IMG/VR virus record: IMGVR_UViG_2671180283_000021
Reading direction: 5' to 3' (one strand)
DNA length: 9,920 bases
From: a virus
Taxonomy: Duplodnaviria > Heunggongvirae > Uroviricota > Caudoviricetes
The notes under the pieces were generated by a model. That model saw only the letters and a list, made by a program, of their open reading frames with translations, searched no databases and was not told the origin of the DNA. Positions 31-9,920 of this stretch are shown here, piece by piece (position 1 is the stretch's first letter; the number at the start of each line of letters is the position of its first letter). The translations under genes were made by a program, and so were the position numbers.

Positions 31-1644
31 TTATTTATTGGTGAGTACTACGTTCCATGGCAGGAGTTCATCAACTCGGTTGGAAGGCCATTCCGGCAGT
101 ACGCTCAGGATATGGCGCAGATACGCTTCCGGATCGATACCGTTCAGACGGCAGGTGCCGATCAGCCCGTACAACAGTGCTCCACGCTCGCCGCCGTGAT
201 CGCTGCCAAAGAACATAAAGTTTTTCTTTCCGAGACAGACTGCACGAAGCGCTCTTTCCGCAGCATTATTATCCGCCTCCGCCAGACCGTCATCACTGTA
301 ATAACAGAGGGCATCCCACTGATTCAGTACATAGCTGAACGCTTCGCCCAGTCTGGATTTTTTCGACAGCGTACCATTCTTCTCCACCATCCATTCATGC
401 AGCGACGTCAGTAACACTTTGCTTCGCTGCTGCCTGACGGCAAGACGCTCTAACTCCGGTAATCCCCGTATTTCATCCTCGATGGCGTACAGTTCACTGA
501 TTCGCTTCAGGGCTTCTTCTGCCGTCGCACTTTTGCTGCTGATGTATACATCGTGGATTTTTCGCCGGGCATGGGCCCAGCACGCAACTTCTGTCAGTGC
601 ACCACCTTCACGTTCTGCACTGAACAACCTGTCGTAACCTGTGAACGCATCCGCCTGCAGGATACCCCGGAAGGGGCGGAGGTGTTGCTCCGGGTGTTTC
701 CCCTGCCGGTTCGGCGAGTACGCGAACCAGACCGCTGGAGGAGATGACGAACCCACATTGCGATCATCCCGGACATACGTCCAGATACGCCCTGTTTTCG
801 CCTTTTTCTGACCCGGTGCCAGTACCTTTACCGGTGTGTCATCAGTGTGAACCTTGCGGGTGTTCATTACATAACGGTACAGGGCATCATTCACCGGTGT
901 CATTAACTGGCAGCACGCGTCAACCCAGTTGGAGAGTAAGGCCCGGCTCAGTTCGACACCCTGGCGGGCAAAGATTTCACTCTGACGATACAGTGGCAGA
1001 TGTTCGCAGTATTTTCCCGTTAACACGCGGGCAAGTAATCCGGGGCCCGCGATACCACGCTCTATCGGGCGGGACGGCGCCGGTGCTTCAACAATACAGT
1101 CACATTTTGTACAGGCTTTTTTTACCCGTTCTGTGCGGATCACTTTCAGGGCACTGCTCACCAGTTCCAGCTGTTCAGCGCTGACTTCCCCCAGATAATC
1201 CAGCTCACCGCCACACTCCGGGCAACAGCTTTCTTCTGGCTCCAGGCGGTGTATTTCACGGGGAAGGTGTGCCGGTAACGGACGACGATGGCGCGACTGT
1301 CGCAACTGGCGGGGAACCTGAGGATCGTCTTCCCGCCCACTGTAACGATCGCTGTCCTGTTCACGTTGTTTCAGCAGAGCCTCAGCCAGTTCAACTTCAC
1401 GACGCAGTTTTTCAGAACGGGTACCGAACAGCATCCGGCGCAGTTTTTCTATCTGAGCCCGCAGATGTTCTATTTCCCGTTCATCTTCTTCGATCTTTTC
1501 TTCGGCACGTGTCAGTGCAGAGCGCAGGAAGGCTTCCGTCTCTTCAACCAGACTCAGTTGCTGGTCTTTCTGACGGAGGGCTTCAGCCTGCTCAGAGAGC
1601 AACCTTTCCAGCTCTGCGATGCGAATGAGGTATTTCTGACTCAT
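31..1644 (-). CDS. tnpC: IS66-family transposase TnpC (ORF3, DDE transposase with zinc-finger motifs)
   Basis: 537 aa. N-terminal coiled-coil/leucine-zipper-like region (LRAQIEKLRRMLFGTRSEKL), CxxC...CxxC motifs (CCPECGG, CTKCDC), and length and organisation characteristic of IS66 TnpC. Confidence 0.9.
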   Translation of the reverse strand: MSQKYLIRIAELERLLSEQAEALRQKDQQLSLVEETEAFLRSALTRAEEKIEEDEREIEHLRAQIEKLRRMLFGTRSEKLRREVELAEALLKQREQDSDRYSGREDDPQVPRQLRQSRHRRPLPAHLPREIHRLEPEESCCPECGGELDYLGEVSAEQLELVSSALKVIRTERVKKACTKCDCIVEAPAPSRPIERGIAGPGLLARVLTGKYCEHLPLYRQSEIFARQGVELSRALLSNWVDACCQLMTPVNDALYRYVMNTRKVHTDDTPVKVLAPGQKKAKTGRIWTYVRDDRNVGSSSPPAVWFAYSPNRQGKHPEQHLRPFRGILQADAFTGYDRLFSAEREGGALTEVACWAHARRKIHDVYISSKSATAEEALKRISELYAIEDEIRGLPELERLAVRQQRSKVLLTSLHEWMVEKNGTLSKKSRLGEAFSYVLNQWDALCYYSDDGLAEADNNAAERALRAVCLGKKNFMFFGSDHGGERGALLYGLIGTCRLNGIDPEAYLRHILSVLPEWPSNRVDELLPWNVVLTNK

Positions 1645-1674
1645 GACCGTTTTTATAATGCGGTCAGGAGTTTT

Positions 1675-2025
1675 TTACAACATTGTCAGTGAGTTACGGC
1701 TGGATGTTTTTGGCTGACGCCAGTCCAGCTTATCGAGGAGCATTGCCAGTTGCGAGCGGGTAATGGATACCTTGCCGTCACGTACCGCAGGCCAGATAAA
1801 CTGGCCTTCCTCCAGGCGTTTGGTGAACAGGCACAGACCATCAGCATCAGCCCAAAGAATTTTGACGGTGTCACCCCGTCGGCCACGGAAGATAAACAGG
1901 TGACCGGAGAAGGGATTATCATTCAGCACATGTTGTACCTGTTCTCCCAGTCCGTTGAAGGATTTACGCATATCGGTAACGCCGGCAACGAGCCAGATAC
2001 GGGTACCTGATGGGAGTGAGATCAT
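1675..2025 (-). CDS. tnpB: IS66-family accessory protein TnpB (ORF2)
   Basis: 116 aa, with the characteristic small IS66 Orf2 sequence (WLVAGVTDMRKSFNGL...ILWADADGLCLFTKRLE). Sits between tnpA and tnpC, and its start overlaps the tnpA stop. Confidence 0.9.
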   Translation of the reverse strand: MISLPSGTRIWLVAGVTDMRKSFNGLGEQVQHVLNDNPFSGHLFIFRGRRGDTVKILWADADGLCLFTKRLEEGQFIWPAVRDGKVSITRSQLAMLLDKLDWRQPKTSSRNSLTML

Positions 2026-2447
2026 CTTCCCCTCCCGGTCAGTTCACGGATCAACACTGTGAGCAGCTCTGGCGATGGATTTTCCAGCGTCATGTTACCG
2101 TGACGGAATTCCACCTTGCAGGAACTGGCACTGACTCTGGTCTGAGTGGAAGTGGATAAAGACGGCGCAATGGCCGCCACAGGTTCTTTCTGCTCATCCG
2201 GCGTTATTTCTACAGGTAATAATTCAACGCCAGTGTCAGAAGAGGTCGTTACCGGAAGACGCCGCGAAACACGCCCTTCGTTCTGCCAGAGCCTGAGCCA
2301 TTTGAAAATAACATTATCATTGACGCCATTTTCACGTGCAATCTGTGCAACACAAGCTCCAGGTTGTGATGCCAGTTCCACCATACGAAGTTTGAATTCA
2401 TTCGAATAGTTTTTACGAGGTTCTTTTCGCCAGTCCTGTAATTCCAT
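2022..2447 (-). CDS. tnpA: IS66-family TnpA (ORF1, HTH DNA-binding protein)
   Basis: 141 aa, with an N-terminal HTH-like segment (YSNEFKLRMVELASQPGACVAQIARENGVNDNVIFKW). First gene of the IS66 three-ORF module. Confidence 0.85.
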   Translation of the reverse strand: MELQDWRKEPRKNYSNEFKLRMVELASQPGACVAQIARENGVNDNVIFKWLRLWQNEGRVSRRLPVTTSSDTGVELLPVEITPDEQKEPVAAIAPSLSTSTQTRVSASSCKVEFRHGNMTLENPSPELLTVLIRELTGRGR

Positions 2448-2508
2448 ACTTAGATGTCCGTCTATATCAGATGGGCGTCTAAGTTACCAATTCTCGTCTG
2501 ATGGCTAC

Positions 2509-2532
2509 ATACGGCGGTCAGTTTACGCTTAC
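2509..2532. repeat. IS66 terminal inverted repeat (end proximal to tnpA)
   Basis: The reverse complement of ATACGGCGGTCAGTTTACGCTTAC matches window positions 1..24 at about 20 of 24 positions. It lies 85 nt upstream of the tnpA start, which is typical for IS66. Confidence 0.7.
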
Positions 2533-2713
2533 CAGGACTGAGGCCTTTCTGAAACTGGTATCCACGTCTGCGGTAATTCTGAATCAGCCACTCGGCCTGT
2601 TCTTCAGTGCATTGGTCATGCTGGTACCAGTCATATTTGAATGCGTGAGAGCGCCGTCCGTGTCTGCTGGCAGGGTCGGCATCAGAATTGTGGTGTTTGG
2701 TATTGTGCGCCAT
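2533..2713 (-). pseudogene. Possible 3'-truncated ORF remnant interrupted by the IS66 insertion (unknown protein)
   Basis: A minus-strand frame with a plausible ATG at 2713 (MAHNTKHHNSDADPASRHGRRSHAFKYDWYQHDQCTEEQAEWLIQNYRRRGYQF...) runs directly into the IS66 inverted repeat at 2532. The supplied longer ORF (to 2794) begins at a TTG inside a terminator T-tract and is unlikely to be real. No family recognised. Confidence 0.3.
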
Positions 2714-2783
2714 CGGTTGTCTCTGCTGGCGCAGCAGGTGCCAGTTGTTCAGGCTGGCGTGTGGATTGTAAACCAGAACGCCA

Positions 2784-2811
2784 GGAAAAAACAAAACCCG
2801 CGAAGCGGGTT
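2784..2811 (-). terminator. Rho-independent terminator downstream of the R-M operon
   Basis: GC-rich hairpin AACCCGC-GAA-GCGGGTT (2795..2811). On the minus strand it is followed by TTGTTTTTTCC, the reverse complement of 2784..2794. It lies 73 nt downstream of the endonuclease stop. Confidence 0.6.
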
Positions 2812-2883
2812 AGTAAAAATGTACTGAAGTCAATGACGTGCCATCACAGTTAAAATATGACAGACTCTATTTACGTAGAGATG

Positions 2884-3762
2884 TCAGACTGCAAGATCCA
2901 AGGGAAGATCAGAAATATCCTTTAATCTTTTACCATTAACCATCACGGAAAGCATGTCAGCTGCATCGCTGAGCCCCAGTATTTCAACTGCTGATATAAG
3001 TTCATAAAGCGCAAAATGATACACGCAATCTATATCACCAGTACCAAGAGCAATAGACGCCAGACGACTTGGAGTAGGCTCAGCAGTAACAACCATTACA
3101 TGAGGGAGATTTCCCTTACGGTTGCGAATAAGATTTAATGCCTCAGAACGAGCATTCTGGGCCCGGTCGCTTCTTATTGTCCATTTGCAGGAAATACTTG
3201 CGTGTAATATTGGTTTCCCACCATTCGAACTCCTGAGAGCTGACATGCGGGTAACAGAATCATCCACCAGTAATTCAGGACTGTTGATAACTTGATCACA
3301 TTCAGGTTCTCTTTCAACAATAATATCTGGTGAAATCGTATAATCACTCCCCAGTGCAGCAGCTAGCTGAGGATTACTTTTTGCAGCACTATCCAATGCT
3401 ATAAGATGGGCATATTGTTCATATTTAGCTATCTCTAATCTGTTTCTACCAGAAACCTGATGTACATTCCATTTTCCAGGGCGTAAGTGGCTGAGTTTAA
3501 AAAAGGTTTTTTCTATAAACTCTGCGCAGATACTCTCAAACTGATTACCAGATGTTTGCCCTGCAACACGTTCACCAATCGTTTCAGCCTGCAAGAAGCG
3601 AGCAATTTCTCTTGCTATAGCTTTACTGTTTTTGTTACTGCTATCTGCGTTACTAACAACTCCGGCAGTATTAATTGTGAGCGTATTCAGTAACAATTGG
3701 GCATGAAACTCCTTTCTGGCTTCAGCAAAACCAACTATGCTGTCAACCAAATCTCCATTCAT
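2884..3762 (-). CDS. Putative type II restriction endonuclease (PD-(D/E)xK fold), partner of the adjacent C5-methyltransferase
   Basis: Lies immediately downstream of the methyltransferase. The ATG at 3762 is 13 nt after the methyltransferase stop and is preceded by AGGAAA. Candidate catalytic motifs are SPDIIVERE and SCK, with a Glu 14 residues after the Lys, a spacing I recall from the Cfr10I/NgoMIV-like family. The supplied ORF extends to 3897 but that portion overlaps the methyltransferase by 122 nt. Confidence 0.6.
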   Translation of the reverse strand: MNGDLVDSIVGFAEARKEFHAQLLLNTLTINTAGVVSNADSSNKNSKAIAREIARFLQAETIGERVAGQTSGNQFESICAEFIEKTFFKLSHLRPGKWNVHQVSGRNRLEIAKYEQYAHLIALDSAAKSNPQLAAALGSDYTISPDIIVEREPECDQVINSPELLVDDSVTRMSALRSSNGGKPILHASISCKWTIRSDRAQNARSEALNLIRNRKGNLPHVMVVTAEPTPSRLASIALGTGDIDCVYHFALYELISAVEILGLSDAADMLSVMVNGKRLKDISDLPLDLAV

Positions 3763-3775
3763 TTCTGGATTTCCT

Positions 3776-4900
3776 TCAGGCTGCTTGACTATTCTTACTG
3801 ATGTTATTCTTATACCGTCCCTGCAAAACTCCATACACATATTGTGCGATTTTTGCTGCAAATAGCGGTGGAACAGCATTCCCGATCTGCTTTGCAATCT
3901 CAGTTTTTGAACCGGTAAAAATGAAATTATCAGGAAAAGACATTAATCTCGCTGCCTCACGATGAGTTATTGGCCGATCCTCTTCCGGATGTAAATATCG
4001 CCCTTTCTCCGGTTTGAAAAACTCAGTACGAATCGTTACTGAAGGTCTGTCCCACCACAGACGTCCAAACAAATCGGTCCCTCCAGATTTCTTTTTTAGC
4101 CAGCACGCCGGGGTTATATCAGGTCTTTTTTTCTGTAAATCGAAACGGTTACCTCCTGGTGGAACCGCTTTATATCGCTCCAGAGAAACAGGTGTGGGAT
4201 TACGCCCAAAATGTAAGTTCAGCGGAGGAAGTTCATTACGAATATCAGTTCCAACAGGAGCAGGTAAGTCACCAATTGCATCACGCGTACAGACCCATTC
4301 AGGCAAAGCGACATCCTTATCAGGGGAACGATGCGTTGGTGCTGGCGGGAACGCCGGAATACTATGCACATCGAAGAGTTCTCGTTTGATACCGATTGCT
4401 ATCGTTCGTTTTCTTGTCTGAGGTACTCCATAGTCAGCAGTATTCAACACCATTGGATTAAGCAGAATAAAGCCCATGGATTTCGCTCTAAACGTAATGT
4501 CCGCAAACTCATCGCTTATCAGCAATCCGGGGACATTTTCCATGACGAACATACAAGCCCTTGAACGCTCAATGACATCCATATAAGGCTCCCACAATGC
4601 TCTTCGGTGATCACCATAACGATTCTTATTCAATAAACTGAATCCCTGACACGGGGGGCCACCTATGACCACATCAGCCTCAGGAACAGTATTGCTGGAT
4701 GCCCACTCCTCAATATTTGCCTGAACTCCATGCAAACCAAAATTGGCATTGTAGGTATTTATAGCTGCAGCATTATTATCAATAGCAAGGATACTTTCAA
4801 AGTAGTCAGACATCTCTCCATGAAGAAAACCATAAGATAATCCACCTGCCCCACAAAAGAGGTCTATCACTCTGAATTTATTTAATTCTTTCATCCGCAT
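3776..4900 (-). CDS. DNA (cytosine-5)-methyltransferase
   Basis: 374 aa with canonical C5-MTase motifs: motif I FCGAGGLSYGF, motif IV GGPPCQGFS, motif VI ENVPGL, motif X QIGNAVPP. RBS GAGG lies 7 nt upstream of the ATG at 4900. Confidence 0.92.
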   Translation of the reverse strand: MRMKELNKFRVIDLFCGAGGLSYGFLHGEMSDYFESILAIDNNAAAINTYNANFGLHGVQANIEEWASSNTVPEADVVIGGPPCQGFSLLNKNRYGDHRRALWEPYMDVIERSRACMFVMENVPGLLISDEFADITFRAKSMGFILLNPMVLNTADYGVPQTRKRTIAIGIKRELFDVHSIPAFPPAPTHRSPDKDVALPEWVCTRDAIGDLPAPVGTDIRNELPPLNLHFGRNPTPVSLERYKAVPPGGNRFDLQKKRPDITPACWLKKKSGGTDLFGRLWWDRPSVTIRTEFFKPEKGRYLHPEEDRPITHREAARLMSFPDNFIFTGSKTEIAKQIGNAVPPLFAAKIAQYVYGVLQGRYKNNISKNSQAA

Positions 4901-4983
4901 CCATATGCCTCAGATTAATGTTGAGCGTCTTACAGGACGCGTAATGTTAACTGGGGCTTTCTCTATCTGCCTTTTGGTGTTCA

Positions 4984-5008
4984 TGCCTGAGGCAGACAGC
5001 CTCAGGCA
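4984..5008. other. Perfect 9-bp-stem hairpin (TGCCTGAGG-N7-CCTCAGGCA) in the QueH/methyltransferase intergenic region
   Basis: Inverted repeat read directly from the sequence, with no adjacent U-tract on either strand. Possibly a weak terminator for the QueH-like gene or a regulatory structure. Confidence 0.35.
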
Positions 5009-5078
5009 CCCGCAGCAATTCTACTTAACTCACGTCACCTCGCCAATATGAAATCAATCAGAAAGGTGATCCATAAAA

Positions 5079-5765
5079 TCACTCCTTCTCTTCTTTTCCG
5101 TAGTGGAGTTGGCCAATTTTGATAAGAGGGCGTCCCTGAGATTTGCGGTGTAGATTGGTATCGCGCAGAGAATACACACAGCCACAATATTCCTGCTGAT
5201 AGAATTTTTCGCGCTTGCTGATTTCAATCATACGGGACGAGCCGCCCTGCTTGCGCCAGTTATAATCCCAGTACACCATACCCGGATAATGCGCAACAGC
5301 TCGCCGCCCACACTCGTTAATCTGCTGCATATTTTTCCAGCGTGAAATGCCCAGTGAACTGCTGATCACACTGAAACCATTTTCAGCAGCGTACAACGCT
5401 GTCCGCTCAAAACGCATGTCAAAACACATGGTACAACGGATCCCCCTCTCAGGCTCCCATTCCATTCCTTTGGCACGTTCAAACCAGTTGTCGGTGTCGT
5501 AATCAGCATCGATAAACGGCACGCCGTGTTGTTCAGCAAAGCGAATATTTTCATCCTTACGAATTAAATACTCTTTCTGAGGATGAATGTTCGGGTTGTA
5601 GAAAAAGATGGTGTAGTCGATTCCCGAGGCCTGAAGCGCCTCCATCACTTCACCGGAACATGGAGCACAGCAAGAGTGCAGTAGTAGTTTGTTTGCCCCG
5701 TTTGGGAGCTCCAATTTAGGCCGTTTGAAATCAGCAATAGTCATAAATATTTTTATTGGGGTCAT
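5079..5765 (-). CDS. queH: QueH-like protein (DUF208 family; epoxyqueuosine reductase QueH homolog)
   Basis: 228 aa. N-terminal motif [11 protein letters not shown] plus further conserved Cys (RCTMCF, EYCGCVY), consistent with the Fe-S cluster ligands of DUF208/QueH as I recall them. No clear SD at either candidate start (5765 or 5744). Confidence 0.6.
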
Positions 5766-5918
5766 GAAAATAGCACAGAGTGTAGCATCAGAGCAGGGCT
5801 ATCGGGAATATATGTCTAAATCTGGTAATATCTGGTTTTGACGCAAAGCGGACAACCACGCTGGCTCTACCCTGCGCCATGAAAATGTCAATTCACATCT
5901 GAACTAATGCTCTTTAAT

Positions 5919-6344
5919 CTAGTAACGTCTAAAATACCTAACATTTCCTTGATAAAATGCCAGTACACGCTGCATAGCTTCGCTCTTCCGGCACTCGCGA
6001 CAGATTATGTTTAGGCGCCTGTCGTAGCGGCGTATTTCGCCGTCTGGTAATAGCCAGATAAGGTCCGGATCAACCACAGATGGTTTCTTCAGCTTTGCCC
6101 TTGAGAGTTTTTTGCGGGCGTTTTGCCAGTCCTTGCGCGCCTGCTCAGACGGGAATACTCCGTAACCGGAATTGTAAACATCACCACTGGCGGCCAGCTC
6201 CATGCATAAACGACCGACAGACGCATGACTGACACCAATTTCATCCGATAACTGCCGAATCGTGCCTCGTCCGTTAAGGCGTACGAATTCCACGATCAGC
6301 CCTTTAATTTTTTCCCGCTCTTCTTGTGTAAAAACTTTTGCCAC
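5919..6344 (-). CDS. Hypothetical protein with N-terminal winged-helix/HTH-like segment and basic C-terminus
   Basis: 141 aa with a GTG start at 6344 preceded by a strong SD (CAGGAGGG, 4-nt spacer). HTH-like segment GTIRQLSDEIGVSHASVGRLCMELAASGDV. C-terminal CRECRK and basic residues. No family recognised. Confidence 0.45.
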   Translation of the reverse strand: MAKVFTQEEREKIKGLIVEFVRLNGRGTIRQLSDEIGVSHASVGRLCMELAASGDVYNSGYGVFPSEQARKDWQNARKKLSRAKLKKPSVVDPDLIWLLPDGEIRRYDRRLNIICRECRKSEAMQRVLAFYQGNVRYFRRY

Positions 6345-6384
6345 AAGCCCTCCTGAAAATTACCTCATGACCAGAAATTAACAC

Positions 6385-7347
6385 TTACCCCCTGAAGCCC
6401 GGCGGAATTTCAGTGTCCGGTTCAGAAATGTGATTCACGCAACGCTGCGCAGGTGAACGCCCCAGGCGGATAACCAGTTCATCCCATTTTTCCCGGAGTT
6501 TTGCCGGACTCATGATGTTTTTTACCCAGAACGAATCCCGCTGGAGACGCCCAAACATTTCACAAATTTGTCTGTGAGTTCTGCCATCCAGCATCCGCAT
6601 TGTGCGAACGTCATTGGCCCATGCTGTCCAGTTGGGTTCTTTCGGTCTAGTGATCTCGCCATCATCGCTGGCCGCCTGCTCGTAAAGACTCACGATTCGT
6701 CCCCAGATCCACTGTGCGCACACCAAATCTTCCTGACTTCCCCACTGGCGTTTTTTCGCACTGAACACAACCGCGTCAGGGTGTCGGGTTAAAAAATCCT
6801 GTTCAGCCATCTGCGGGTCCGGTTGCGAAGCGTCCGGACAAGAAGATCTTTTATCTGACGGATCAGGTTTTAATACTGACGGATCGGGGTCAATCATCGC
6901 CCCCCTAATCGGCAGTTTTTTATCAACAGTTGATCCATCAAAATTTAACGGGTCAACCGTTGAGGGGTCAATATTTGACGGGTCAACTGTTAACGGGTCA
7001 TTTTTTGCCGGGCTAATTTTTCTTTTCGGTTTATATGACTCACGCGCCGCCGCCGCAGCTGCTTCGAGTTTTTCCACATTAAGCCGATAGATATTGCTTA
7101 CATTACGCCCACCGACCTTACGCTCTTCCTTCGTCAGCCAGCCCTCTTTCGCCAGTTCTGCAATAGCCGATTTCACTGTGGATTCACTTCTTGCACCGAT
7201 CTGACGCCGGATAGTTTCAATGGCAGGCCATGACACGCCCTCGTCATTGCTGTAGTCTGCAAGACGGGCCATAACCGCCACCCTGGATAAGATCATGCCG
7301 GTGAAGGCGCACCCTTCCCAGACAAGACCATGAAGCTTGCTGCTCAT
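6385..7347 (-). CDS. Phage replication initiation protein: N-terminal HTH (HTH_36-like), pentapeptide-repeat linker, C-terminal DnaT-like domain
   Basis: Preferred start is the ATG at 7347, preceded by GGGGG; the supplied ORF begins at a GTG at 7362. The N-terminus (VSWPAIETIRRQIGARSESTVKSAIAELAKEGWLTKEE) resembles the replication-initiator wHTH. The C-terminus (...VNHISEPDTEIPPGFRG) closely matches what I recall of the E. coli DnaT C-terminus (...SEPDSQIPPGFRG). Internal xxVDP repeats are encoded by the iterons. Confidence 0.7.
   Translation of the reverse strand: MSSKLHGLVWEGCAFTGMILSRVAVMARLADYSNDEGVSWPAIETIRRQIGARSESTVKSAIAELAKEGWLTKEERKVGGRNVSNIYRLNVEKLEAAAAAARESYKPKRKISPAKNDPLTVDPSNIDPSTVDPLNFDGSTVDKKLPIRGAMIDPDPSVLKPDPSDKRSSCPDASQPDPQMAEQDFLTRHPDAVVFSAKKRQWGSQEDLVCAQWIWGRIVSLYEQAASDDGEITRPKEPNWTAWANDVRTMRMLDGRTHRQICEMFGRLQRDSFWVKNIMSPAKLREKWDELVIRLGRSPAQRCVNHISEPDTEIPPGFRG
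6855..7040. repeat. Putative origin of replication inside the rep gene: direct repeats, four tandem 15-bp iterons and an AT-rich tract
   Basis: CTGACGGATC occurs twice (6855..6864 and 6876..6885). Four tandem 15-bp units run from 6947 to 7006 (AACGGGTCAACCGTT, GAGGGGTCAATATTT, GACGGGTCAACTGTT, AACGGGTCATTTTTT), with the core (C/G)GGGTCA at a 15-bp period. They are followed by an AT-rich stretch (TTTTTTGCCGGGCTAATTTTTCTTTTCGGTTTATAT). The layout resembles lambda ori within gene O. Confidence 0.6.
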
Positions 7348-7369
7348 AAAACCCCCGAACACCGTGCTT

Positions 7370-7795
7370 TTAGTGCATCACCACAGCATTCCCTGCCGGG
7401 CCGCCGCGATTCATCTGGTCATACAAAACAACCGCTGACGCAACAAAATCATCGACATCCTTCACCAGCCGATCCCTCCGTTCGACGATCTCACGGTAAT
7501 ATTCAGAACTGTGGCTGCGCATACGGGCCACCAGCAAAGGCGGCATCGCCTTTTCGATCGCCGGTAACAGAGCCTGCATTTTTTCAACAGCATCAGGGGT
7601 GTCTTTATCCAGCCAACGGAAAATTTTCTGGGTATTACGGGCCAGGGCTTCCGGATGGCTGTCGTCGTACAGTTCAGGGAACGTCATCCCCAGTTCGAAA
7701 TAAGTCCGGGCTATTTCAGCTGCAGGAACTTTCTCACCATCAGGGTATGCCCAGGCATTCATCGCCATGCGGATGTGCTCATGTTTGATTTTCAT
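7370..7795 (-). CDS. ydaT: YdaT-like protein (Rac prophage YdaT family; CII-like regulator, historically annotated as putative toxin)
   Basis: 141 aa with N-terminus MKIKHEHI, matching my recollection of E. coli K-12 YdaT. Lies immediately downstream of the YdaS-like gene, overlapping it by 17 nt. Confidence 0.75.
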   Translation of the reverse strand: MKIKHEHIRMAMNAWAYPDGEKVPAAEIARTYFELGMTFPELYDDSHPEALARNTQKIFRWLDKDTPDAVEKMQALLPAIEKAMPPLLVARMRSHSSEYYREIVERRDRLVKDVDDFVASAVVLYDQMNRGGPAGNAVVMH

Positions 7796-8102
7796 GAATC
7801 ATTTGCCTCTTGATGCTTCGGGTATGATCGTTTTCGTCATTTGGTTGCTTCATCGACATATTCTGCGAATAACATGACGAGCGTCGTAAGTATGTCCAAT
7901 CAACATCAGGACGAAGTTCTTCACACAGGACACCACCTTTTGTTGCTCGTTCAATCGCAGGACATCTCTCAGCAGGTAACTGACGTACACCTTTGATCCA
8001 TTGATTTACGCTTGGAGGAGATACACCTAAAAGCCTAGCCATTGCTGATTGCCCACCGACAACAGCACAAGCTCGTTTGAATGAATAGTTATCTTTTTTC
8101 AT
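7779..8102 (-). CDS. ydaS: YdaS-like Cro-type HTH regulator
   Basis: Sequence MKKDNYSFKRACAVVGGQSAMARLLGVSPPSVNQWIKGVRQLP is a Cro/CI-type HTH. Preferred start is the ATG at 8102, with GGAG 8 nt upstream; the supplied ORF starts at a GTG at 8123. Divergent from the repressor gene. Confidence 0.8.
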   Translation of the reverse strand: MKKDNYSFKRACAVVGGQSAMARLLGVSPPSVNQWIKGVRQLPAERCPAIERATKGGVLCEELRPDVDWTYLRRSSCYSQNMSMKQPNDENDHTRSIKRQMIHENQT

Positions 8103-8129
8103 CGAATGAACTCCAAAAAACACGCAACA

Positions 8130-8159
8130 ATATTAGGTTTAGCCTAATGAAATTGTCAA
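8130..8159 (-). promoter_or_regulatory. Putative sigma70 promoter for the ydaS-ydaT-rep operon (rightward-operator analog)
   Basis: On the minus strand: -35 TTGACA (reverse complement of 8154..8159), an 18-nt spacer, and -10 TAATAT (reverse complement of 8130..8135). Overlapped by the palindrome ATTAGG-N5-CCTAAT (8132..8148). Confidence 0.5.
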
Positions 8160-8172
8160 TAGGCTATGCCTA
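8132..8172. promoter_or_regulatory. Operator cluster between ydaS-like and repressor genes
   Basis: Perfect palindromes ATTAGG-TTTAG-CCTAAT (8132..8148) and TAGGC-TAT-GCCTA (8160..8172), with a further half-site TTGCCTAA at 8190..8197. Confidence 0.55.
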
Positions 8173-8226
8173 ATACATCGAGAGTAGGGATTGCCTAACG
8201 CGATGCGCATAGGAGACTATTAAGCA

Positions 8227-8703
8227 ATGCTTAGTGGTAAAGACTTAGGCCGAGCGATAGAGCAGGCCATTAACAAAAAAATTGCATCAGGAGCCGTCAA
8301 ATCAAAGGCGGAAATCGCACGTCATTTCAAAGTCCAACCACCATCAATCCATGACTGGATTAAGAAAGGTTCGATAAGTAAAGACAAACTTCCAGAACTA
8401 TGGCGTTTCTTTTCTGATGTGGTTGGTCCAGAGCATTGGGGGCTTAACGAATACCCCATACCAACCCCATCCACTTCAGATACAAAAAGTGAACTTTTAG
8501 ACATAAACAGCCTTTATCAAGCCGCCTCTGATGAAAAAAGAGCAATTGTGGCTTTCATCTTATCTGGAAATGCTACGGAGCCTAGTTGGGTTGATCATGA
8601 CGTTCGCGCCTACATTGCCGCAATGGAAATGAAGGTAGCTAACTATCTGAAAAATCAAGAATCAAAACGGAAAAGCCAGAACATCACCAAGACAGGAACT
8701 TAA
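8227..8703 (+). CDS. racR: RacR-like prophage repressor (XRE/CI-type HTH)
   Basis: 158 aa, with an HTH segment (SKAEIARHFKVQPPSIHDWIKKG). Divergent from the ydaS/ydaT-like genes, with operators on both flanks. Length and synteny match Rac prophage racR; the symbol is assigned by context, not by sequence identity. Confidence 0.7.
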   Translation: MLSGKDLGRAIEQAINKKIASGAVKSKAEIARHFKVQPPSIHDWIKKGSISKDKLPELWRFFSDVVGPEHWGLNEYPIPTPSTSDTKSELLDINSLYQAASDEKRAIVAFILSGNATEPSWVDHDVRAYIAAMEMKVANYLKNQESKRKSQNITKTGT

Positions 8704-9021: not shown

Positions 9022-9174
9022 ATGGATACTATCGAGCTTGGCAACAACGAATCTCTGGTATGCGGCGTGTTTCCCAACCAGGACGGCACGTTTACCGCGA
9101 TGACATATACCAGAAGCAAAACGTTTAAAACTGAAGCTGGCGCGCGTCGCTGGTTAACCAGAAACACTGACTGA
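9022..9174 (+). CDS. Small hypothetical protein (Rac-region YdaF/YdaG-like position)
   Basis: About 50 aa from the ATG at 9022, with GAGG 5 nt upstream (MDTIELGNNESLVCGVFPNQDGTFTAMTYTRSKTFKTEAGARRWL...). The supplied ORF offers an alternative ATG at 8941 (77 aa). Its stop overlaps the next ORF. Confidence 0.4.
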   Translation: MDTIELGNNESLVCGVFPNQDGTFTAMTYTRSKTFKTEAGARRWLTRNTD

Positions 9175-9185
9175 TGAGGTTGACG

Positions 9186-9506
9186 ATGGAATTTAAAGAT
9201 TTACCAGTACCATTCCAGGAAATGGCATCGAATGTGGTTCGCTCTCAACTGGCGACTCTTGACCTGAGTACCGTAGAAAAAGAAACCATCGACAATATAT
9301 CCGGTAACGTACGCCGAGCCTTTATCGGGCTGTACGAAGAGAAGCAGCTCTCTGATAACCAGGATTTACATGAAAAATACTTCCTGGATCTAATGGACAT
9401 CATTGATAAGGGGTTTGGCTTGTTAATGAAAAAGAAAGGGATTCGAATAGAACCCCTTGAAAATTACTTTGCAACAAAAAGCATTAATTCTTTTGATTCA
9501 AAATAA
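9186..9506 (+). CDS. Hypothetical protein (AT-rich accessory gene)
   Basis: 106 aa from the ATG at 9186, with GAGG 5 nt upstream; an alternative ATG at 9174 overlaps the previous stop. AT-rich codon usage. No recognisable motif. Confidence 0.45.
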   Translation: MEFKDLPVPFQEMASNVVRSQLATLDLSTVEKETIDNISGNVRRAFIGLYEEKQLSDNQDLHEKYFLDLMDIIDKGFGLLMKKKGIRIEPLENYFATKSINSFDSK

Positions 9507-9759
9507 GAGAATTAATTACAGACTTAACATGCTCTTTCTCATGATTGAAGCTCTCATGATTGAAAGTGCCGGGTTGAAGCGAGTCGATATAATCAACAAG
9601 ACTCTGTCGTACGACTTCATTTTTATCCATAACAGATGCAAGAAATGAAATTGCTAAAAGAGTTATATCACTACGCGCCGCAGCATGTTGCAATGCTTTA
9701 TCAAAATTATTAATCTGGCGTATCAGGGAGTTAATGATTTCATCATTTTCAGTCGACAT
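9484..9759 (-). CDS. Hypothetical protein, convergent with and 3'-overlapping the 9186..9506 gene
   Basis: About 91 aa from the ATG at 9759, preceded by a strong SD (AGGAGGG, 4-nt spacer). The supplied ORF extends to 9837 without an RBS. AT-rich. No family recognised. Confidence 0.45.
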   Translation of the reverse strand: MSTENDEIINSLIRQINNFDKALQHAAARSDITLLAISFLASVMDKNEVVRQSLVDYIDSLQPGTFNHESFNHEKEHVKSVINSLILNQKN

Positions 9760-9920
9760 TTCACCCTCCTGAGGGTTGGTGATTAAGGAGTTCTCCACGG
9801 GTGAGGTGGAGTGCGTGCGCCGGACACGGGTGAGCATCCGGCACTGACAGTTTACTGAAAGGATATTTCCCTGAAAAGTCAGACCATAACGCGAAAGCGC
9901 ACGGCGAGGTAGCTGGTTCA

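Follow-up and report, generated by a model that had tools for sequence, protein, structure and literature searches.

DUF977, QueH and an NgoMIV-family restriction-modification pair as probably independent modules in an accessory slot of a Rac-type lambdoid prophage

QueH is known to act on the last, tRNA-bound step of the queuosine pathway. It is independent of cobalamin, unlike QueG, which needs this cofactor. Escherichia coli cannot make cobalamin de novo, and the activity of its QueG hinges therefore on the cobalamin supply. In a different domain of bacterial physiology, both hok and type II restriction-modification (R-M) systems can serve as addiction modules. Members of the DUF977 family include LygF, from the Sdf region of Salmonella, and YdaW, from Rac in strain K-12. 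YdaW appears among predicted transcription factors (PMC9308461), and it is reported as one of the prophage genes whose overexpression blocked the toxicity of retron-Sen2 (bioRxiv 10.1101/2020.06.22.160242). Staphylococcus aureus is a precedent for QueG and QueH in one genome, with different cofactor needs and different expression (PMC13443448). Modification of phage DNA with 7-deazaguanine is real, and a 2019 survey of viral deazaguanine genes found no homologs of QueA, QueG or QueH in the viruses that it analyzed (PMC6884629). We analyzed a stretch of 9,920 nucleotides (the window) from a tailed virus of the Caudoviricetes (IMG/VR record IMGVR_UViG_2671180283_000021), in which a DUF977 protein, a QueH and a type II R-M pair stand side by side at positions 2884-6344.

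Three adjacent modules and a replaced hok locus

The original prediction had described this block as four co-directional genes, which were either a coincidental stack of cargo genes or a composite locus for 7-deazaguanine-related modification and defense. All four genes are indeed on the minus strand, each with a profile match, and the proposed QueH-like (PF02677), C5-methyltransferase (PF00145) and endonuclease (PF09015) identities were upheld. The intergenic gaps of 153 nucleotides (5766-5918) and 178 nucleotides (4901-5078) are exact. Our analysis favors the first of the two alternatives. With a probability of roughly 0.85, the three modules (DUF977, QueH and the R-M pair) are independent and do not make up a combined DNA-modification or defense system. 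The locus would be the counterpart of the lambda ren/nin region, a slot for variable accessory genes in a Rac-type lambdoid prophage. This slot would lie between the replication gene and the DUF968-RusA-Q genes, now interrupted by IS66, and the adjacency of QueH and the R-M genes would be an accident of cassette replacement. The features of the slot are the following.

5919-6344, minus strand: DUF977 / Ren-like / LygF / YdaW protein, 141 residues (PF06163, 99 bits, profile positions 1-133 of 134; phrog_142 "Ren-like exclusion protein", E 5.7e-43)
5079-5765, minus strand: QueH, 228 residues (PF02677, 222.6 bits at a cut-off of 23.5, profile positions 1-174 of 175)
4906-5078, minus strand: remnant of the hokD mRNA 5' leader (column-for-column alignment with the hokD/mokW upstream region of an ST131 prophage and of phage HannyBb, up to the mok Shine-Dalgarno sequence)
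2813-4905 (approximate), minus strand: R-M cassette (blastn breakpoints and alignments, composition)
3776-4900, minus strand: C5 cytosine DNA methyltransferase, 374 residues (PF00145, 184.6 bits; TIGR00675; alternative start at 4894)
2884-3762, minus strand: NgoMIV-family type II restriction endonuclease, 292 residues (PF09015, 422 bits; PADLOC REase_II, E 8.4e-126)
2785-2811, minus strand: intrinsic terminator, a hairpin and T tract (terminator scan; aligns with ST131 downstream of hokD, as does all that lies further downstream)

The distribution of these modules was followed in 5426 complete E. coli genomes, to which all counts in this species refer. QueH is present in 995 genomes (18%) and absent from 82%, and about 94% of the QueH-bearing genomes are without the R-M pair. 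The gene that directly follows QueH is hokD in 741 genomes. The R-M pair was found in 60 genomes, and QueH accompanies it in 57 of them. The whole block (3.6 kilobases, kb) is 98% identical in 57 complete genomes, inclusive of O157:H7 strain 9000 with its relatives, and O111:H11. We also inspected 80 IMG/VR contigs whose QueH is identical to that of the window; hokD is downstream in 53 and the R-M pair in 20, a share that is inflated by the bias of this sample toward the window's QueH allele. Because the identical QueH is found in both hokD and R-M contexts, the swap appears to be recent.

The same independence is seen from the side of the R-M genes. A scan for the endonuclease with one genome per species returned at least 512 relatives, of which the best 80 loci were examined (endonucleases 59-78% identical, from many phyla). 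A C5 methyltransferase is immediately upstream on the same strand in 72 of the 80. Within 8 kb, no QueH or DUF977 homolog was found in any of these 80 best NgoMIV-family loci from other species. In Klebsiella michiganensis, the closest methyltransferase outside E. coli (80% identity) is followed by an NgoMIV-family endonuclease, between DinI and the LexA_DNA_bind/DUF968/Q genes of a lambdoid prophage. DNA identity (72%) is confined to these two genes; the flanks are unrelated, with neither QueH nor a hok leader. A search for conservation of the gene neighborhood had been suggested with the original prediction, and its outcome goes essentially against linkage: homologs of the first two genes do not stand with R-M genes elsewhere. 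The hokD swap, the Klebsiella pair and the 80 loci devoid of QueH together favor the stack of cargo genes.

The swap can be traced in alignments. The order in the ST131 prophage is DUF977, QueH, hokD, two small genes, DUF968, RusA and Q; in HannyBb it is O-like, DUF977, a small gene, QueH and mokW/hok. The window aligns with the ST131 prophage at 94% over 4907-6353 and at 84% over 2538-2812, and between the two segments 2.1 kb of R-M sequence takes the place of 287 base pairs with hokD. The right junction is just past the mok Shine-Dalgarno sequence, where "CTGAGGC" is continued by ATATGGATGCGGATG in the window versus CCAATCTATG in ST131. The left junction is immediately before the terminator hairpin. 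With the junctions at these two points, the R-M genes sit between the hok promoter and leader on one side and the hok terminator on the other. The promoter scan gave a promoter-like TTGGCG-17-TAGAAT at 5046-5018; the leader begins at about 5011, and the mok Shine-Dalgarno GAGG is at 4911-4908. The first in-frame ATG of the methyltransferase (4900) is 7 nucleotides past this GAGG. The Rfam model for sok (RF01794) scored 61 bits, with a gathering score of 59; the fit is good over 5011-4909 and forced beyond. This sok/hok leader was the sole match in the Rfam scan of the window, which disclosed no riboswitch or other RNA upstream of QueH or the methyltransferase. The methyltransferase and endonuclease genes stand in place of the mok/hok coding sequence, of the segment after the mok start and of the 3' fold-back element. 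Nor does the window have the stretch on the 3' side of hok (GCACCCGCAC in ST131) that complements the 5' end. Lacking any hok or mok coding part, the locus is a remnant and not a hok/sok system. The R-M cassette has a G+C content of about 40-44%, versus about 50-57% in the replication and IS66 flanks. As to flanking repeats of the cassettes, just short two-copy matches of chance size were seen.

The intrinsic terminator with which the R-M genes had been said to end is present as a minus-strand hairpin at 2811-2795, with 5 G-C pairs among its 7 and a T run behind it, 72 nucleotides past the endonuclease stop codon. It lies just outside 2884-6344, however, and belongs to the backbone; by its alignment it is inherited from the hok cassette and the backbone and was not introduced by the R-M genes. 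The hok/mok coding sequence of a hokD toxin locus has thus given way to a two-gene methyltransferase-endonuclease cassette, and we propose that the resulting operon is probably transcribed from the retained hok promoter. The earlier caution that the block may comprise partly separate transcription units was judicious. In this arrangement the R-M pair would shield the lysogen from foreign DNA and, like hok, would penalize loss of the prophage. The locus is a clean example of an addiction and defense module (type II R-M) that replaces hok/sok and would reuse its promoter, ribosome-binding site and terminator, and the swap illustrates the turnover of cargo slots in lambdoid prophages.

A separate observation pertains to the leader. 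A 125-nucleotide piece of it (4907-5031) is 96% identical to an unannotated stretch of the Actinobacillus phage vB_Apl-pPE4, which is odd for a phage of Pasteurellaceae. The match could be due to a conserved hok-type element or to a contaminant.

QueH of the prophage

The QueH of the window matches the full length of its domain, with about 26 N-terminal and 27 C-terminal residues beyond the Pfam model; the start adopted in RefSeq is at 5744. The cassette that is common to prophages spans approximately 5075-5860. Comparison with Thermotoga maritima QueH (7LC5) gave E 5.5e-22 and 33% identity, and all six cysteines of the 7LC5 chain are conserved (the CCAP, CxxC and CGC motifs of the metal sites were tested). 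The nearest relatives outside E. coli prophages are 80-90% identical, bear the annotation QueH and come from Erwinia, Photorhabdus, Providencia, Proteus, Gibbsiella, Rahnella, Dickeya and others. The Providencia gene is chromosomal, beside tmcA/dapE, and the contexts in Photorhabdus and in the 90%-identical contig are also non-phage. We consider that this QueH would be a recent capture of a housekeeping epoxyqueuosine reductase from other Enterobacterales. By homology, its most likely reaction is an iron-sulfur-based reduction of epoxyqueuosine, which would yield queuosine at position 34 of tRNA-Asp, tRNA-Asn, tRNA-His and tRNA-Tyr. The protein is thus most likely a captured, B12-independent tRNA epoxyqueuosine reductase. 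The final step of queuosine formation would become independent of the cobalamin that the host QueG requires.

The gene queG was found in all 5426 genomes, so that the prophage brings, in QueH, another enzyme for a step that the host already covers. QueH is of full length in 985 of its 995 genomes and at least 99% identical in 707, and it is kept across differing prophage backbones and immunity types. Among records of isolated phages, it was convincing only in HannyBb (L002, 5549-6235), where it is annotated as "hypothetical protein", and PHROGs lists the family (phrog_3217) as being of "unknown function". Our literature search for prophage QueH, or for this R-M pair in O157, returned nothing relevant, and prophage QueH seems unstudied, though annotated. 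Upstream of the gene, a possible extended -10 (TGcTACACT) is seen at 5779-5793 with no good -35, and the consensus scan reports no promoter there. A tentative proposal, to which we give somewhat less than even odds, is that prophage QueH is a genuine virus-spread auxiliary tRNA-modification gene, a phage-delivered and cobalamin-independent backup to QueG in about one fifth of E. coli genomes. If so, the decoding of Asp, Asn, His and Tyr codons would be altered in lysogens or in induced cells under scarcity of B12, and phages would for the first time have been shown to carry and use an enzyme for a late step of queuosine formation. A widespread and apparently unstudied prophage QueH could free queuosine formation from vitamin B12 in many pathogenic E. 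coli.

QueH might alternatively serve the lytic cycle. In this scenario, induction would switch the gene on as part of the early-right operon, and queuosine on the tRNAs that read NAC and NAU codons would improve the translation of late genes. The gene reads in the early-right direction and follows the replication genes, the scan gave it no clear promoter, it is present in HannyBb, an isolate that forms virions, and lambdoid prophages of the same family also bear tRNA genes. Nonetheless, the importance of queuosine over epoxyqueuosine for phage yield has no support, and an iron-sulfur protein requires time and maturation. The gene is also intact in many defective prophages, inclusive of the present one, disrupted by an insertion sequence, which points to a benefit for the host. 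We regard the lytic role as rather unlikely; it would alter only the timing of QueH action and not its function.

We think it improbable that QueH simply rides along in E. coli as a neutral gene whose function is not under selection. That QueG would suffice is in keeping with the universal presence of queG and with the absence of QueH from most genomes. A neutral gene would not be expected, however, to be retained at full length and near identity to the extent that we observed, nor across the different backbones and immunity types. QueG also depends on the supply of cobalamin, and in S. aureus both enzymes are retained, with differing expression (PMC13443448).

The restriction-modification pair and the case for linkage

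The endonuclease open reading frame (ORF) was listed as 2884-3897, which is over-extended; the RefSeq start in identical copies gives 2884-3762, such that the gene begins 13 nucleotides past the methyltransferase stop codon. Its match to NgoMIV (1FIU) is strong (E 9.6e-119, 65.8% identity over 281 residues). The two proteins do not differ in the stretch HASISCKWTIRSDRAQNARSE or in the PD of SPDIIV; we take these to hold the catalytic Asp/Lys/Glu and the R-x-D-R recognition residues of the NgoMIV structure. For the catalytic and recognition test, the stretch SCKWTIRSDRAQNARSE and the D of SPDIIV were compared and are identical to NgoMIV. Since these residues are kept, the predicted site is GCCGGC. 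The window has 1 such site versus 2.2 expected, numbers that are too few to inform on avoidance. The methyltransferase has all of its motifs (I FCGAGG, IV PPCQ, VI ENV, VIII QTRKR and X GNAVP). The two genes are predicted from these features to constitute an ordinary type II R-M pair, with an NgoMIV-family endonuclease. PADLOC recognizes solely the type II methyltransferase and endonuclease; QueH and DUF977 are not recognized. In 59 of the 60 genomes with the pair, the two ORFs are unbroken and identical to at least 99%. In records of isolated phages, the endonuclease was found only in one fecal contig.

The methyltransferase is not the usual partner of such an endonuclease. Its identity to the methyltransferases that stand beside other NgoMIV-family enzymes in the sampled loci is only about 25%, in essence the C5 motifs that all have in common, while the endonuclease is 59-78% identical to those enzymes, and the methyltransferase did not qualify as an orthologue of M.NgoMIV. 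It is 70-81% identical to an Enterobacterales lineage, in which the target-recognition region is equally conserved (72-82%). The same lineage is paired with an HNH nuclease in a P2-like prophage of Yersinia kristensenii and in the chromosome of Edwardsiella tarda. These pairings suggest that unrelated nucleases have been exchanged on one methyltransferase specificity.

One alternative is that the pair is inactive or mismatched baggage, with a silent endonuclease or in a state of decay. The low identity of the methyltransferase to those at the 72 other NgoMIV-family loci, the HNH partners of its lineage and the arrival of the cassette without a promoter of its own would all be in line with it. 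Yet the ORFs are intact and nearly invariant, the catalytic and recognition residues of the endonuclease and every catalytic motif of the methyltransferase are kept, and the mok Shine-Dalgarno sequence is ideally spaced before the methyltransferase start codon. E. coli and Klebsiella moreover share the pairing at only 72% DNA identity, a distance that speaks for a working pair and for long joint purifying selection on both genes. Inactivity is therefore quite improbable.

A composite locus, in which QueH and perhaps the DUF977 protein would create or alter a 7-deazaguanine mark for joint action with the R-M genes, would account for four co-directional adjacent genes and for QueH beside nearly all E. 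coli copies of the pair, and has a real counterpart in phage DNA modification (PMC6884629), but it is exceedingly improbable and largely refuted by the gene-neighborhood data: QueH usually occurs without R-M genes and often with hokD in their place, the R-M genes are a clean cassette swap, the same pair sits in Klebsiella with no QueH, none of the 80 NgoMIV loci has QueH nearby, and this QueH is a near copy of housekeeping enzymes for the last tRNA-bound step. No DpdA/TGT, FolE, QueC, QueD or QueE is present in the window, where all ORFs of at least 50 residues are accounted for or too small, nor is any annotated in a 21-kb relative. Modification of DNA with deazaguanine is accordingly not supported, as the DpdA/TGT-type and preQ0-synthesis genes that it needs are absent.

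Several points count against three independent and functional modules. The co-occurrence of QueH with 57 of the 60 R-M pairs would, taken alone, also fit a linkage of the two; it fits a single recent insertion as well. The endonuclease does not stand with an orthologue of its customary methyltransferase, and a match of the two specificities is judged only from the persistence of the intact pair (60 genomes, and Klebsiella). The promoter scan of the 153-nucleotide gap upstream of QueH gave no convincing sigma-70 promoter, which leaves expression of QueH in the lysogen and expression from the early-right operon after induction as alternatives. Lastly, our statements on expression and activity of the four genes derive from homology and gene context.

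The DUF977 protein, the prophage backbone and comparison with known systems

The 141-residue protein had been called an unrecognized winged-helix protein in the original prediction. It belongs in fact to DUF977 (PF06163, phrog_142), with LygF and YdaW. Residues 1-80 were modeled from the single sequence by AlphaFold2 with a pLDDT of about 90, in an H-S-H-H-S-S (helix and strand) winged-helix topology; the C-terminal part was not modeled. The top Foldseek matches were all winged-helix proteins (MarR, IclR, GntR and Zalpha), none at E <= 0.001, and the sequence matches to helix-turn-helix families were weak. The final 20 residues share 60% identity with the C-terminal end of lambda Ren (E 4e-7). 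The gene is 40 nucleotides after the replication gene, which is the place of ren in lambda. It is upstream of QueH in 72 of the 75 viral contigs with sufficient flank. In E. coli 042, DUF977 is followed by different small genes and then hokD, without QueH, hence the same slot with other content. We conclude that DUF977 is a backbone gene in the lambda ren position and not cargo. The protein would have a winged-helix DNA-binding head and a Ren-like tail, and is probably a regulator or an exclusion or anti-defense factor.

A Z-DNA-binding (Zalpha) identity for the head was considered and set aside. The phmmer match to the Zalpha domain of fish PKZ (E 0.0056) and the Foldseek TM score of 0.80 to 4KMF were read as generic winged-helix similarity. 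The positions that we take to be the Z-DNA-contacting Asn and Tyr are Gly and Met in the DUF977 protein.

The remainder of the window is, by its gene content, the early region of a Rac-type lambdoid prophage. Its features are the following.

8227-8703, plus strand: RacR (NF049929 equivalog model, 246 bits)
7779-8123, minus strand: YdaS-type Cro (RacR/YdaS/YdaT immunity module)
7370-7795, minus strand: YdaT (RacR/YdaS/YdaT immunity module)
6385-7362, minus strand: replication initiator, O-like, YdaU-type (phrog_391 "replication initiation O-like", E 2.5e-115; HTH_36)
2533-2794, minus strand: 5' part of a small backbone gene (phrog_1212, 90 residues in relatives), truncated by the IS66 insertion
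31-2532, minus strand: IS66-family element with tnpA, tnpB and tnpC (HTH_Tnp_1, TnpB_IS66, DDE_Tnp_IS66)

The RacR/YdaS/YdaT immunity module (7370-8703) is intact, and the RacR score marks the element as Rac-type; close relatives of the block have different repressors, for example one of the LexA family in ST131. Two overlapping ORFs on opposite strands, at 9174-9506 (plus) and 9484-9837 (minus), lie in a stretch of low G+C content (37-40%) and have no Pfam match.

The replication initiator is the upstream border of the accessory region, and its gene is 97.7% identical in nucleotides to that of the prophage of O157 strain 9000. Relatives that bear the R-M pair have a DnaC/IstB-like ATPase gene and a DUF1627 gene between the replication gene and DUF977, and the window is without both. 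The absence of a helicase loader, to which the original prediction had drawn attention, is thus correct for the window, but it is not peculiar to it. The direct junction of the replication gene with DUF977 (40 nucleotides, 6345-6384) was found in 1749 of the 5426 genomes and in the isolated phage HannyBb, and the loader-less junction is therefore a standard variant of the module. The C-terminal 21 residues of the initiator are weakly similar to the C-terminus of DnaT (NF002770, E 0.004; also phrog_18526 and phrog_3729). This tail hints at a possible recruitment of host helicase loading.

The IS66 neighbor was identified correctly. Homology to the compared relatives ends at 2533, which places the IS66 boundary at 2532/2533. 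The ORF at 2462-2794 (110 residues) is a chimera, in that its phrog_1212 match is limited to residues 52-90 and the remainder reads into the IS66 end. In the relatives, DUF968, RusA and the Q antiterminator occupy the place of IS66; the prophages that carry the block have it, the small gene and then these three. By this comparison, IS66 is a later insertion that has parted the block from the DUF968-RusA-Q genes. The combination of the R-M cassette, the loader-less replication module and IS66 was not found among the complete E. coli genomes, none of which spans at least 80% of the window. All four genes of the block are already named by family in RefSeq; in the genomes that carry it, PGAP/RefSeq gives "DUF977 family protein", "epoxyqueuosine reductase QueH", "DNA cytosine methyltransferase" and "NgoMIV family type II restriction endonuclease".

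As a system, the block has little significance, being a chance neighborhood of known families, and it is a caution that adjacency in the accessory regions of prophages does not amount to functional linkage.

Each module has its own described counterpart. The QueH resembles the DUF208 enzymes (7LC5, and the chromosomal QueH of Providencia, Photorhabdus and Erwinia) in its full-length domain, its six cysteines and its 80-90% identity to the enzymes of related genera. Unlike the housekeeping enzymes, it is encoded among the accessory genes of a prophage, and its host invariably has QueG. With the 7-deazaguanine modification of phage DNA, in which DpdA acts with FolE, QueD, QueE and QueC (Hutinet et al. 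2019), the only common point is the place of QueH in the wider queuosine pathway. The step of QueH, which comes after insertion of the base into tRNA, is not used by Dpd-type systems (PMC6884629). The DUF977 protein shares with lambda Ren its position after the replication genes, phrog_142 and the C-terminal motif (E 4e-7). Lambda Ren (96 residues) has no Pfam domain and aligns with DUF977 over the C-terminal tail alone, whereas DUF977 has an extra, predicted N-terminal winged helix (residues 1 to about 80). From hok/sok type I toxin-antitoxin loci of the hokD/relF type, the window retains the promoter, the 5' leader with the mok Shine-Dalgarno sequence and the terminator hairpin. The R-M pair compares with the NgoMIV system of Neisseria gonorrhoeae (type IIF, G^CCGGC, 1FIU) in the full-length PF09015 domain, the 65.8% identity, the PD...SCKWTIRSDRAQNARSE residues and the order of methyltransferase and then endonuclease. 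In contrast to that system, the methyltransferase of the window is of another C5 lineage, and the pair is borne by a prophage, fused to a hok leader and terminator with no control region of its own.

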